DNA of 64,000 nucleotides from Octopus sinensis (GCF_006345805.1 NC_043001.1:135036001-135100000); one strand, 5' to 3'; shown: positions 25,720 to 62,815, counted from the stretch's first letter. Notes: generated by a model not told the origin, from the sequence alone. Made by a program: numbers and translations.

Positions 25720-26010
25720 AGTAAAAAAAGAGAACAAAACACAGAGAAAAAGAAAACAAAAAGCAAACAAACGTTTGGACATGGCACAAGTAATATATTA
25801 ACGAAACACTCAGAGAAGGGAAAGAATAGAAGTTTTACGCTTCGAGCATAGCTCTTCTTCGGAAACAGGAAGAAACAGGAAAATCCAAGACGAAGGAGGA
25901 GTAAAATCGCCAACAATCACGTGCGGTTTACATTTTTGAAGTAAGTGACCAGAAGTAGGAATGGAGTGAAAATGCTTTCTGGAACAGGAGAGTGCGAAAA
26001 TGGTCAGTAT
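25720..26010 (-). mobile_element. Penelope-type pLTR module with variant hammerhead at 25832-25866
   Basis: Minus strand gttt-CCGAAGA-a-gagc(tat)gctc-GAAGC-GTA-aaac; homologous to 49384-49586; lies between TA/TG tracts. Confidence 0.65.
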
Positions 26011-26134
26011 GCGTGTGTGCGAGCGCGTGTGTAGTAGCGTGGTGTGTGTGTGTGTGCGTCGTAGCATGTGTGTGTGTGTGGTGATATATATATATATATA
26101 TATATATATATATATATATATATATATATATATA

Positions 26135-26538
26135 TACTCTTTTACTCTTTTACTTGTTTCAGTCATTTGACTGTGGCCATGCTGGAGCACCACCTTTTAG
26201 TCGAGCAAATCGACCCCAGGACTTATTCCTTGTCAGCCTAGTACTTATTCTATCAGTCTCTTTTGCCGAACCGCTAAGTTACGGGAACGTAAACACACCA
26301 ACATCGGTTGTCAAGCGATGTTGGGGGGACAAACACAGACACACAAACACATACACACACATATATATATGTATACATATATACGACGGGCTTCTTTCAG
26401 TTTCCGTCTACCAAATCCACTCACAAGGCTTTGGTCGGCCCGGGGCTATAGTAGAAGACACTTGCCCAAGGTGCCATGCAGTGGGACTGAACCCGGAACC
26501 ATGTGGTTGGTAAGCAAGCTACCTACCACACAGCCACA
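26135..26538 (-). mobile_element. SINE-C
   Basis: Near full-length match. Confidence 0.93.
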
Positions 26539-26878
26539 TGTATATATGTATATATGTATGTATATATGTGTGTATATAATATATGTTTGTATGTGTATGT
26601 ATACATGTATGTAATGTGTGTGTGTGTGTGTGTGTGTGTGTGTTACTGGTACTTAGGTGTCCTCCGAGAGTGGAGGCTAGTTCTGTTTGTTCACCGAGGA
26701 ATTTTTACCGAATGCCCTCCTCTCTTTTTCCATCTTCTTCCAACCCCTTCTCCGTCCGTTAACGAACAGGGGAGCTCCAACATCAATGGTTCCTTATCTT
26801 TTTGATTGCAGGGTGTCCTGGGGATCAAACAAAACGTTACTGGCTTACTTTGAATGGAATATGCTTCAAAGTTTAAAA

Positions 26879-27162
26879 TCTCTCTCTCTCTATCTATCTA
26901 TCTGTCTGTCTGTCTATCTATCTATCTATCTATCTATCTATCTATCTATCTATCTATCTATCTATCTGTCTGTCTGTCTATCTGTCTATCTGTCTGTCTG
27001 TCTGTCTGTCTATCTATTTATCTATCTATCTATCTATCTATCTATCTATCTATCTATCTATCTATCTATCTATCTATCTATCTATCTATCTATCTATCTG
27101 TCTATCTATCTATCTATCTATCTATCTATCTATCTATCTATCTATCTATCTATCTATCTATC
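26879..27162. repeat. (TCTA)n/(TCTG)n compound microsatellite
   Basis: Direct reading. Confidence 0.98.
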
Positions 27163-27165
27163 CCC

Positions 27166-27445
27166 CTTTTATCTTTTACTTGTTTCTGTCACTGGGCTGT
27201 GGACATACTGGAGCAGTGCCTTGAAGGGTTTAGTCGAACAGATCGACCTCAAAACATAACATTTTAAAGCCTAATACTTATTCTATTGGTCTCTTTTGCT
27301 GAACTCTTTTGTTACGGGGATGTAAACAAACCAACACCAGTTGTCAAGCAGTGGTGGGGGACCGACACAAAGACATACATACATACATACATACATACAT
27401 ACATACATACATACATACATACATACATACATACATACATATATA
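27166..27445 (-). mobile_element. SINE-C 3' half with (CATA)n
   Basis: cttttacttgtttctgtcactgggctg...ccagttgtcaagcagtgg. Confidence 0.82.
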
Positions 27446-27447
27446 AA

Positions 27448-27677
27448 GGCGGCGAGCTGGTAGAAACGTTAGCACGCCGGGCGAAATTCGTAGCCGTATT
27501 TCGTCTGTCGTTACGTTCCGAGTTCAAATTCCGCCGAGGTCGACTTTGCCTTTCATCCTTTCGGGGTCGATAAATTAAGTACCAGTTACGCACTGGGGTC
27601 GATGTAGTCGACTTAATCCGTTTGTCTGTCCTTGTTTGTCCCCTCTGTGTTGCCCCTTGTGGGTAGTAAAGAAATAT
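27448..27677 (+). mobile_element. SINE-B, full length
   Basis: Full match; followed by ~210 bp of imperfect (TA)n. Confidence 0.93.
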
Positions 27678-59829: not shown

Positions 59830-59930
59830 CTAACACTTCCTTCTCAGAACATCAGCCTTCTGGAATTCCATCCTTGCGCATGTATTTCATACTACTACCA
59901 CCTTTGCAGCAATCCATAAGAAACATTAAG
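59830..59930 (+). pseudogene. Possible LINE ORF2 C-terminal fragment
   Basis: HFLLRTSAFWNSILAHVF resembles the FFPRT..LWNSLP..VF motif. Confidence 0.4.
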
Positions 59931-60623
59931 CTCATCAGTCTCACTCAAAGGACTGAGAAGGCTGATGGGGCCTTCTCAAAGCTTCCTCCAGACTCCCACC
60001 TCCCAAAATGGAGTTGAGCGACCAAGTTGGTTCGTAATTGCCATTTAGTTTTGTCACCGTTGTTTAATTTGAATCACTGTGATTCCAATCTATTATATTA
60101 TAGTGCTAACGATAGATTCCTGTTGTGTAAAACAATTTGTCCCGCTGTGGAAAAGGGATGGTAAAAGTGAGTGTGCGATAGGAGAGCAGACATACGCACA
60201 TTCACAAGCATATGAATGCTATTGATGCACAACTACATACATGCACATATACGACAATTATCTGAGTGTGTATGTGTGTATGAGAAAGTGTGTGTATGGG
60301 AGTATCTGTATATGTGCACAGGCCATTAGCATTCGTATACGTGTGACTATGTGTATGTGAAGACGTGCCTAGTGGTGTTTGTTTAATTCCCCCTCGTTTA
60401 CTATTTACCTGACGATTTAATGCAAGCGTGTTAGAGCAAGTCATTGCCATGAAGATTGAACATCTATCTACGCTATTTTCCATATATTAATTACTATCTT
60501 CTTAACTCTTTTCGTAAAATGTGTGTAACGGTATGACCTGGATATGGAGACTTTTGAACTATCTATATACTAATCCTATCTTTCTTTGTAAAAAATGTGC
60601 AACGGTATATAACGGTATATATA

Positions 60624-60853
60624 GGCGGCGAGCTAGCAGAAGCGTTAGCACACCGGGCGAAATGCTATGCGGTACTTCGTCTGCCGTTACGTTGTGAGTT
60701 CAAATTTCGCCGAGGTCGACTTTACCTTTCATCCTTTCGGGGTCGATAAATTAAGTACCAGTTACGCACTGGGGTCGATGTAATCGACATAATACCTATG
60801 TCTGTCCTTGTTTGTCCCCTCTATGTTTAGCCCCTTGTGGGTAATAAAGAAAT
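60624..60853 (+). mobile_element. SINE-B, full length
   Basis: Full match; ggtatata on both flanks. Confidence 0.93.
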
Positions 60854-61345
60854 AGGTATATACTGGATACTGGTGTCACCAACGATGTAAAAATCAAGTG
60901 CTTCTTAAAATATTTTATTACCGAAACAGAGTTTGGTATGTTACGTCGGACAACGATCATAGAACGCGACAGCGAGAATAGAATAGATAGAGGCAGAGAA
61001 GATATAGGGAAAATTAAGGGAATAGCAAAAAGAAGAAAGGAGAATTAGGAGTAAAGAAAGCAGAATCAAGAAGACTAGGAGAATTAACTCAAGAGGAAAG
61101 GAGTAATATTTATGCAAGAAATGGAGCTTGACGGTATCATCTGCTTAACGATGAAACTGAAGCTAATAGGGAAACATAATTGCTAATCAAAATAAGGGGC
61201 AAGTGATAGGCGATGGTGACAGACAAAAATATTTTGCGCAAGTCAGAATGAGGAAACAAGTTACAAGAGAATAGACTACGTTTTCTAGAAATTAATCTAA
61301 GAATTATGAAGGTAAATAACAGGATATTATTACCGAAATGTTTAT

Positions 61346-61678
61346 GAAGGCGCATGGCTCAGTGTTTAGGACATCGGGCTCACAATCATGAAGTAGTAAG
61401 TTCGATTCGTGGACCGGGCTGTGTTGTGTTCTCGAACAAGACATTTTATTTCACGTTGCTCCAGTTCACTCAGCTGTAGAAGTGAGTTGCAACGTCACTG
61501 GCGCCAAGTTGTATCGGCCTTTGCCTTTCCCTTGGATAACATTGGTGAAGTGGGGAATGAGGGCGGGTATGCATGGGCGACAGTTTGTCTTCCATAAACA
61601 ACCTTGCACAGACTTGTGCCTGGGAGGGTAACTGTCTTGGTGCAATCCTATGGTCATTCATGATCGAAGGGGGTCTCT
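61346..61678 (+). mobile_element. SINE-E (tRNA-derived), full length
   Basis: A box tggctcagtg, B box agttcgattc; 18-bp TSD tattaccgaaat(g/a)tttat. Confidence 0.87.
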
Positions 61679-61755
61679 TATTACCGAAATATTTATAGCT
61701 GATATTACCGAAATATTTATAGCTGATATTACCGAAATATTTATAGCTGATATTG
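61679..61755. repeat. 24-bp tandem repeat x3
   Basis: tattaccgaaatatttatagctga. Confidence 0.95.
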
Positions 61756-62319
61756 CACCACAAAATGGGGCGTGGAATTTCCACAGGTTCTTCTAGTTTC
61801 TTATTAAAGTGATACTCTGCTTTCTCTATGAACATTGGCTGGAAAGCAGAGAAATAATTCGTATATAGGGAGTCTCAAAGTAAAAGAAAAACAAAAAAAA
61901 ATCAATATGAATAATCAATCATAGTTTATGTTGAAATACGAAACGATGAATATATGTTAATTGTATGAACAAGAGATGGTGTTTGTCGCATAAAAGACAG
62001 TTTAGAGAATCGTCTCTTTGAAATTGGTGTCGTTGTTGGTGTTTAGCTCCAGGCCGACTCTTATTGAGCAGACCTAATGAGTAGGCGTATGGTAGCAATG
62101 ACCATGGGTTTCAGTCAAGTACTGAGGTCGAATTAATCGTGTTGTTTTCCTTCCGCCGCTAGCGATGTGGCCTTGTGCTTATGTTAGATATCATTATGTA
62201 CGTCGTAAGATTTTATGCTTGTGGCACTGTCTATGGAATGTGTGTGCGTGTGTGTATGTATAAATATATATATGTGTGTGTCTGTGCATGTATATATATA
62301 TATATATATATATATATAT

Positions 62320-62815
62320 AACGTAAAGTGTACTAGCCATCTGAATGTGGCTAGCCACTGGGGGTGGGTGTTACTGAAGCTTATAGCCCCAGGAGATCAT
62401 CGTCTCCAGCTGGCTTTAAACACACTTTCTGTGCCCTTCTGATATTCGCAAAGAGAGGTCATCCCCTCTCGAAAACCTAAGTGATACATACGGACTATAG
62501 TTTCGAGGTATTTGCCTCTCGTCAACGTACGGTAATCACCGATTTTCGATTGGAGTGACCTGTTGACGAGTGGCAAATACCTCGAAACTATAGTCCGTAT
62601 GTATCACTTAGGTTTCCGAGAGGGGATGACCTCCCTTTGCAAATAGCAGAAGGGCACAGAAAGTGTGTTTAAAGCCAGCTGGAGACGATGATCTCCCGGG
62701 GCTATAAGCTTCAGTAACACTCACCCCCAGTGGCTAGCCACATTCAGATGGCTACTACACTTTACGTTGTCGAGCGGTTACTGTTTACATCTCGTTCGGA
62801 GATTTATTAATGCTT
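62320..62815. mobile_element. Palindromic Penelope-type element with two opposed hammerhead motifs, in (TA)n
   Basis: Arms 62320-62526 and 62562-62768, 35-bp spacer, ~47-bp unpaired extension; (TA)n on both sides. Confidence 0.85.
62487..62531 (-). ncRNA. Minimal hammerhead ribozyme fold (C3U core variant)
   Basis: cgtacg-TTGACGA-gagg(caaata)cctc-GAAAC-tata-GTC-cgtatg; palindromic actatagt stem III. Confidence 0.72.

Follow-up and report, generated by a model that had tools for sequence, protein, structure and literature searches.

Minimal hammerhead motifs are known from the pseudo-long terminal repeats (pseudo-LTRs, pLTRs) of Penelope-like elements (PLEs), and the sections of Cervera and De la Pena (2014, PMC4209133) that deal with them describe a short stem I, an extra base between positions 9 and 10.1, a G10.1-C11.1 pair, a palindrome at 15.2-16.2 and thousands of dispersed copies from truncated PLEs, including Neptune. 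Neptune PLEs, as characterised in the relevant part of PMC8557442, combine a C-terminal GIY-YIG endonuclease, a CX2-5CxxC linker, a pLTR hammerhead and an insertion bias for microsatellites; the linker marks Neptune and Nematis and is proposed there as the source of the Neptune bias. Metazoan non-LTR retrozymes, according to the extracts of PMC7229834 and bioRxiv 10.64898/2026.07.22.740005 drawn on here, are non-coding units of 150-450 nucleotides (nt; 350-390 nt in mussel) with a GC content below 50% and a type I hammerhead, which occur as dimers to multimers, have a self-paired fold and are flanked by duplications of more than 4 nt. In the same extracts PLEs are proposed as the movers of retrozymes (PMC7229834), and in Xenopus retrozymes are tied to PLEs by pLTR homology (bioRxiv 10.64898/2026.07.22.740005). 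Here we describe hammerhead-bearing repeats in a stretch of 64,000 nt of Octopus sinensis (GCF_006345805.1 NC_043001.1:135036001-135100000; G000:C5:135036001-135100000 in our numbering), referred to below as the window, which lies on a 135.9-Mb contig, less than 1 Mb short of its end, in an assembly of 2.72 Gb, has a GC content of 38% and is rich in microsatellites and short repeats.

An earlier note on the window had described short non-coding mini-modules with a minimal type I hammerhead fold and (TA)n beside them, and had read them as several families of non-autonomous PLE derivatives, retrozyme-like or solo-pLTR. Our analysis bore out several dispersed families that are hammerhead-bearing, TA-associated and apparently PLE-derived, but divided the modules into three kinds, solo pLTRs (A, B and F), a PLE end (C) and a retrozyme-type repeat (E); 'solo-pLTR' suits A, B, F and C, and 'retrozyme-like' suits E. 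The independence of A, B and C as non-autonomous elements was not upheld, since the same subfamilies form the 3' ends of long copies bearing an open reading frame (ORF). Taken as a whole, it is likely that A, B and C are PLE terminal repeats, A and B being TA-primed run-off products, and that E is a separate 356-nt hammerhead repeat moved by a PLE. A more far-reaching reading, in which TA pairing gives rise to tens of thousands of strong-stop-like solo pLTRs of a fixed 205 nt and E is a retrozyme carrying direct PLE footprints, is offered tentatively. Hammerheads in pLTRs and animal retrozymes are already published, and those described here are further members with two mechanistic leads.

Long partners of modules A, B and F

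The five main motifs of the earlier note were all recovered on the minus strand, together with a second E copy devoid of the 5' strand of stem I on the plus strand (62563-62601). The features of A, B and F are as follows.

46902..47107, minus strand: module A, solo pseudo-LTR of ~206 nt from a Neptune-type PLE; RNA 3' end at 46902
47000..47037, minus strand: A hammerhead motif; stems I and II of 5 and 4 bp, core CUGUCGA (A6U), extra A, CG palindrome, GUA site
46876..46901: (TA)n at the A 3' end; the other side is 47107-47120
28811..28872, minus strand: 3' 62 nt of an A-type pLTR, without the hammerhead; 92% to A; interrupted at ~28870 by what we take to be a tRNA-like short interspersed element (SINE)
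49384..49587, minus strand: module B, solo pseudo-LTR of ~204 nt from a second Neptune-type PLE; 91-92% to both pLTRs of L187
49473..49507, minus strand: B hammerhead motif; core CCGACGA (U4C), GUU site; the window copy is one stem I A short
49336..49383: (TA)n at the B 3' end; the other side is 49587-49600
25719..26083, minus strand: module F, apparently an older, longer relative of B; continues into CA-rich sequence resembling a 3' untranslated region (UTR)
25832-25866, minus strand: F hammerhead motif; GAAG in place of GAAA

The genome was searched with A (46902-47107), B (49384-49587), C (27883-28238) and E (62322-62530) as queries, and the best 40 were scored out of 2356 (A), 1119 (B), 2394 (C) and 2376 (E) first-look candidates. 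All 40 scored places were filled for each query, showing that every one of these modules is multi-copy and not the single-copy sequence that would have spoken against the earlier proposal. Among the scored candidates, A is 97-98% identical to 29 other copies and B is 92-97% identical to 29 others. F, which was compared with window B and loci L123 and L162, is 72.7% identical to B over 128 nt and 68-71% identical to the read-through pLTRs in these two loci.

Long PLEs sharing their 3' ends were found for both A and B, a check that the earlier note had called for. The B/F-type repeat in sample locus L123 continues into UTR and ORF start, and this stretch was used as query for long copies. Locus L187 holds a broken but full-length element made up of a pLTR (92% to B), an ORF with reverse transcriptase (RT) motifs, a 2-kb CA-rich UTR and a second pLTR (91%), followed by (TA)n and by two further solo pLTRs, and L186 is arranged in the same way. 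With the upstream extension of A we reached L266 and L274, which are pLTR-ORF-pLTR copies of a sister subfamily (88-90%), and the subfamily of window A itself (93.7-97%) lies downstream of an RT thumb, a CxxC linker and GIY-YIG in four of 14 loci (L358, L359, L362 and L364). The partner ORFs carry PCxxxxCxxC between RT and GIY-YIG (PCSRSPCRTC in L269) and give weak Pfam matches to RVT_1 and GIY-YIG, families also carried by their Atlas neighbours at 0.96; a Pfam scan of two partial partner frames gave no match. Together, these arrangements indicate that A and B are almost certainly the ends of long RT-endonuclease PLE copies, present in the window as solo pseudo-LTRs. By their C-terminal GIY-YIG and linker we take the partners to be of the Neptune type; the linker occurs in Nematis as well.

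Neither A nor B is circularly permuted or forms a head-to-tail unit: downstream of the repeat lie the PLE 5' UTR and ORF, and tandem copies are separated by (TA)n. In five places (L036/L037, L187:6555-7316, L356/L357, L279 and L280) the same family appears to have re-entered (TA)n beside an earlier copy, producing TA-split pseudo-tandems. The Neptune-type 3' UTRs (L187:4420-6550; L266) are 0.6-2 kb long and made up of (CA)n, (CATA)n and CT-rich sequence; these elements thus bring microsatellites along besides landing in them.

The window also holds a broken, 5'-truncated PLE fossil (45353..46410), whose presence the earlier note had reported correctly. As partner of A and B it was rejected on two grounds: its relatives do not have A or B as their own ends downstream of the ORF, and it is devoid of the cysteine linker found in the A and B partners.

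Ends of A and B and their (TA)n junctions

The flanks of B were examined in 30 copies selected with a 62-nt query devoid of TA. TATATA or ATATAT lies within 16 nt of the 3' end in 27 of the 30 and at the 5' end in 21, the background being 5.5%. A density sample drawn from contigs C1-C22 at round coordinates, 800 kb in all, yielded 26 rows, from which four internal UTR repeats were dropped and one proved to be E, leaving 21 A/B/F-type matches, two pairs of which are one insertion each. TA was present within 30 nt in 15 of the 21, as compared with 9.0% in the background; one of these is the element's internal TATATA. The flanks are thus richer in TA than background, and in the window (TA)n borders both 46901-47107 and 49384-49586 (A and B) on either side, as proposed earlier; 28810-28872 repeats the 3' TA junction of A at 92% identity. 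The 21 matches correspond to about one per 38 kb, or ~71,000 genome-wide (44,000-109,000); the same sample held one E match, no C and no D-labelled match. The window is denser in A/B/F-type modules than the sample, and the earlier figure of roughly one module per 10 kb applies within the window but not elsewhere.

The 3' ends of A and B copies are base-exact and the 5' ends are ragged. At the read-through junction of long copies, the pLTR is followed by TATATAT in all four A copies and by TATATAC in five of seven B-type copies, the other two being slightly different; these seven were retrieved with a pattern that does not require TA. The junctions of B copies fall in two registers 2 nt apart, independently of an internal subfamily marker (11:5 versus 13:9, Fisher p 0.74), which fits a fresh choice at every insertion. 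As the RNA matches the target exactly where the copies end, we infer that nicked (TA)n pairs and primes there. According to the mechanism that we propose, a protein of the element would nick a (TA)n tract, the nicked TA end would pair with a UAUAUA that the element's RNA carries directly after the pLTR and prime there, and the RT would copy ~205 nt back and run off the 5' end of the RNA, giving a solo pLTR; the hammerhead, which is indeed present uncut in the copies, would be copied whole and is likely not needed for insertion. We favour homology priming by nicked (TA)n on the internal UAUAUA with reasonable, though not high, confidence.

It is improbable that (TA)n is instead written by a telomerase-like RT slipping on UAUAUA and is not a target at all. 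The template motif for slippage exists, and the PLE RT is placed as sister to telomerase RT in PMC8557442, but TA is also found at the 5' end of the 21 B copies mentioned above, as it should be if the tract was there before the copy inserted.

The 5' ends of B cluster at 198-215 nt in 22 of the 30 copies, six being shorter and two lying at 229 and 238, with none above 238. Those of A lie within 9 nt of one ATG in 29 of 30 top copies, a set length-biased by its query, and in eight of 19 incidental copies. TCA stands at the upstream edge in A1, A2, A3, F and five of 11 long B-type copies. Run-off at the start of the RNA is the simplest reading of the cluster, given that the start site and promoter of Penelope lie inside the pLTR (PMC2377424). 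Whether the cluster indeed marks the transcription start we regard as evenly poised. In A1, A2, A3, B and F, the 5' cluster (in the window, the region of 47096-47107 and 49575-49587, minus strand) holds an ATG in good context, which is followed by a stop at once or at most four codons on.

That the short copies are ordinary 5' truncations, clustered by AT microhomology at the ATG or by pausing of the RT, seems distinctly unlikely. Most PLE insertions are 5'-truncated, as stated in the bioRxiv 10.64898/2026.07.22.740005 extract, many junctions sit on an ATG adjoining (TA)n, and a small hairpin of -7 to -10 kcal/mol lies just upstream of the A cluster. However, the B cluster has a hard upper edge, with only two of 30 copies beyond -215 despite an upstream UTR rich in AT and TA steps; the distance is equal in two families only ~70-75% alike around the motif; and no strong hairpin was found at the B 5' cluster, so that an RT-stopping hairpin was rejected as its cause.

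A further explanation, rather unlikely, is that A and B propagate themselves as non-autonomous elements, the promoter of a solo pLTR transcribing into (TA)n and the transcript being recopied like a SINE. This would account for the fixed solo length and the young, near-identical copies, and the Penelope 3' pLTR holds everything needed for transcription (PMC2377424). SINE-like spread predicts the same 5' ends as run-off and may operate in parallel. On the other hand, long ORF-bearing copies belong to these very subfamilies, the junction register is independent of the subfamily marker, and no solo-only subfamily was seen when copies were compared without a tree.

The proposed insertion into AT-rich targets from an internal RT start, with a hammerhead that is likely dispensable, would liken A and B to the green anole Poseidon element (PMC11167929), in which two start sites give a tail; such a two-site tail is seen in E and C. 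Compared with the Neptune elements described in PMC8557442 (in the part noted above), A and B have no 30-40-nt tail and show the two junction registers instead, and their elements have the TATATA junction and a long CA- or CT-rich 3' UTR.

Several observations weigh against TA-primed run-off from Neptune-type elements. The Poseidon start site is not homologous to the DNA that is cut, whereas A and B match their (TA)n target (PMC11167929). In read-through B-type copies the end of the 5' pLTR ranges from -197 to -752, lying beyond -230 in five of nine, so that longer templates exist; TCA is missing from the edge in six of the 11 long B-type copies; and the incidental A copies scatter around the ATG, between 264 nt above it and 66 nt below, five being much longer. 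Besides the length bias of the A set, the 30 B copies were chosen as the closest to a single window copy and are therefore one age class. A genome search with the 62-nt 3' end of A gave no match, probably on account of overly common words, so that a length-unbiased genome-wide set exists for B but not for A. No intact partner was found, every long copy examined being broken by stops or shifts, and the clade labels rest on motifs rather than on an RT tree.

Module C

27883..28162, minus strand: module C core, putative 3' end of a third PLE, from the genome search and long copies
27964-28019, minus strand: C hammerhead motif; perfect CUGAUGA/GAAA core; stem II long, with C.A as closing pair; CAGCUG palindrome; GUA site
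28159..28238, plus strand: inverted piece of the C 3' tail, which measures ~140 nt where complete

Copies of C abut (TA)n at their ends. Many carry a tail of 140 nt, which starts at a TATATA-like junction, and many adjoin an inverted piece. In L064, L084 and L368 the tail stretch continues the core in sense after such a junction. The long copies extend 900 nt upstream into endonuclease-like frames with a GIY-YIG-like C-terminus (L368 and L373), which had no Pfam match, and the RT was not reached. The tail, the inverted partner and these frames suggest that C is the 3' end or terminal repeat of a third endonuclease-bearing PLE. By its motifs, we take this PLE to be Nematis. A long low-complexity insert rich in Asn, Thr and Ser directly precedes the endonuclease of the C partner (L368:539-1138 and L373:163-978), resembling the N-rich inserts of rotifer Penelope elements in the section of PMC3846280 that reports them.

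Module E as a retrozyme-type repeat

62321..62564, minus strand: module E left arm; spans positions 113-356 in the 356-nt unit of a retrozyme-like repeat
62487-62530, minus strand: E left-arm motif; 6-bp stem I, core UUGACGA, 4-bp stem II, palindrome CUAUAG, GUC site
62562..62816, plus strand: module E right arm; an inverted copy that spans positions 151-356 of the unit and has a 50-nt tail
62563-62601, plus strand: E right-arm motif; stem I is missing its 5' strand
62291..62320: (TA)n left of E; the other side is 62816-62863

The two arms of E are 92% alike. The sequence past the 3' end of E is the sequence before its 5' end, revealing a circular permutation with a unit of 355-356 nt, and head-to-tail arrays of ~4 units and of two units were found at G000:C29:10820427-10821850 and C5:35451127-35451840, respectively. 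Each short head-to-tail unit is non-coding (longest frame 97 codons), has a GC content of 44% and holds one type I motif. Folded as a circle it reaches -115 kcal/mol, as compared with -82.2 +/- 5.4 for shuffled sequences, none of 100 being as low (z -6.1). E therefore resembles the published metazoan retrozymes introduced above in unit length, composition, type I motif, multimers, self-pairing and duplications, its 355-356 nt falling within the mussel range.

The termini of E fall on one site in 19 of 38 cases and on a second site, 41-52 nt further, in 18. Twenty of 31 insertions are inverted, and shared flanks of at least 8 nt, mostly 11-14, border 15 of the 31 (control 0/31); in these counts one insertion is counted twice, one row spans two insertions and some of the flank duplications are low-complexity. 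A tail and an inverted partner are PLE traits in the relevant sections of PMC3846280 and PMC8557442. From these ends we consider it quite likely that E is moved by a PLE; a Penelope-type enzyme likely copies E from an RNA that is circular or tandem, and may do so more than once around. That the template is a circle rather than a linear multimer has about an even chance. TA is found on either side in 12 of the 31 insertions, so that the TA association claimed earlier for the modules is, for E, a bias only. In comparison with the published retrozymes, as far as the extracts describe them, E has a U3.G8 core, a PLE tail and an inverted partner and has no identified parent pLTR, and their link to PLEs consists of co-occurrence and pLTR homology. 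Besides the shortcomings of the insertion counts, it tells against the proposed movement of E that no PLE with the 3' end of E, and no driver PLE, was found among the loci examined.

It is possible, although we doubt it, that the E multimers are read-through of genomic tandems or duplications at the DNA level, without circular RNA, and that the U3.G8 core is inactive. U3 opposite G8 is nearly fixed among the parsed E copies, and eight of nine Xenopus retrozyme dimers failed to cleave in vitro (bioRxiv 10.64898/2026.07.22.740005). Against this stand the strong circular self-pairing, which is like that of reported retrozyme circles (PMC7229834, in part), and the longest array, which is only ~4 units among the 40 scored candidates.

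To regard all modules as retrozymes with ends set by hammerhead cleavage is highly improbable, even though every module carries a type I motif and E has retrozyme structure. The cut site of B lies ~93 nt from the 3' end and the shortest of the 30 copies reaches 160; A and B are not circularly permuted and their tandems are split by (TA)n; and the ends of E show no clustering at its own cut site. For A and B, the end positions already contradict ends set by cleavage.

A second E-like family, which the earlier note had overlooked, is represented in the window by the following feature.

25271..25615: second E-like family, inverted insertion truncated before its hammerhead; 93% to L266

This insertion is bordered by a 13-nt duplication (25260-25272 and 25619-25631). 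A longer copy, L266:380-720, aligns along E, has a hammerhead-shaped motif with different stems and appears to be circularly permuted. The only distant match of E is repeat D17 (window 11761-11828; also in L111 and L234), which is 82% identical over ~65 nt to the hairpin at the first 3' end of E; one may have captured the other. D17 ends in a hairpin and CTAG and is presumably Helitron-like.

Hammerhead motifs

Taken singly, the motifs are weak. Most of nine stretches fold at z -0.5 to -1.2 relative to shuffles and two at +1.1 and +0.3, that is, no better than shuffles; a descriptor found two matches at a score of at least 8 in the window, as compared with 0-1 in eight shuffles, and a looser one found 11 matches in 400 kb elsewhere, as compared with 1-6 in five shuffles. 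An Rfam scan of the window (77 matches, to E-value 10) returned no hammerhead family. The case for hammerheads therefore rests on the families. Across these, 90% of 200 stem cells are paired in 20 hand-picked rows, slid controls giving 16-45%, so that the stems are retained; a point against is that only one stem pair varies on both sides in these rows, in a single change between the A and B families.

The minimal type I fold named by the earlier note is present as to stems I and II, an extra base after A9, a palindromic stem III and the NUH site, but the core is noncanonical in A, B, E and window F, and the canonical CUGANGA/GAAA is found only in C, with U3 opposite G8 in E. A6U occurs in 62 of 62 parsed A copies (of 66). 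In B, CCGACGA occurs in 47 of 57 parsed copies (of 75), four have CUGACGA and the U of the cut site is present in 56; stem I of the family has 4 bp (GUUU/AAAC). A, B and F share the short stem I and the extra base with the pLTR hammerheads of PMC4209133, and the likeness extends to the G10.1-C11.1 pair, the palindromic 15.2-16.2 and the thousands of dispersed copies. They differ in the fixed A6U of A and in U4C with GUU in B, the core variant named in those sections being U3-A8; the same sections contain no description of a fixed-length solo class or of TA priming.

In other hammerheads, A6C and U4C reduce activity (PMC3088659), and in an anole PLE hammerhead cleavage was dispensable for insertion in vitro (PMC11167929). 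We predict that the hammerheads described here are at most weak, or dependent on dimers or protein, and by analogy they are likely not needed for insertion. Other hammerhead-shaped motifs were seen in the loci: three copies of one with a CUGAUGC core, 680-1070 nt apart, at L149:1819-3573, and further ones in L132, L139 and L112.

Relation to earlier work and implications

Literature titles and abstract openings gave no account of TA-matched internal priming, of a fixed-length solo class, of PLE footprints on a retrozyme or of octopus hammerheads; Repbase and supplements lay outside this scope, and the families may be catalogued there. An excerpt of a 2026 octopus repeat annotation lists Penelope families, without the word ribozyme (PMC13282606).

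If our reading is correct, how Neptune elements choose microsatellites becomes testable with short substrates, by way of the six bases over which RNA and DNA match at a start site that is mapped. Some 70,000 short repeats (44,000-109,000) would be promoter-bearing pLTRs, and very successful families would appear to tolerate fixed changes of the hammerhead core. Whether PLE proteins move animal retrozymes also becomes testable, since E insertions bear PLE-type ends; the tail, inversion and duplication of E would, if true, be direct footprints of the mover.

Other features of the window

45353..46410, plus strand: broken, 5'-truncated PLE fossil with RT thumb, GIY-YIG and 3' end; tblastn to L109 and L111
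46268-46302: decayed hammerhead motif of the fossil, at its 3' end

The weak motif at 46271, listed earlier as a mini-element, turned out to be the 3' end of this fossil. A Pfam scan of three fragments of the window fossil found no PLE domain; its tblastn relatives L109 and L111 match RVT_1 and GIY-YIG in Pfam, and the relatives L094 and L098 retain CUGAUGA/CUGAAGA.

Two other weak motifs were dropped as hammerheads for want of supporting relatives. None of seven local relatives of 59511 with the first box has CUGANGA, and the 387 loci compared (1.94 Mb) contain no relative of 32055-32095. The region of 59474-59600 belongs to a repeat family of ~110 nt lying between (CATA)n, with the palindrome GAAACCGGTT and no valid first box.

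ARAGORN found no tRNA gene in the window. The element that interrupts the A-type fragment at ~28870 (repeat family D20) is presumably a tRNA-like SINE by its A/B-box look. On the minus strand, a frame at 24501-24812 resembles what we take to be a piece of a Tc1-type transposase, and a longer one at 17740-20600 is presumably a decayed retroelement ORF.

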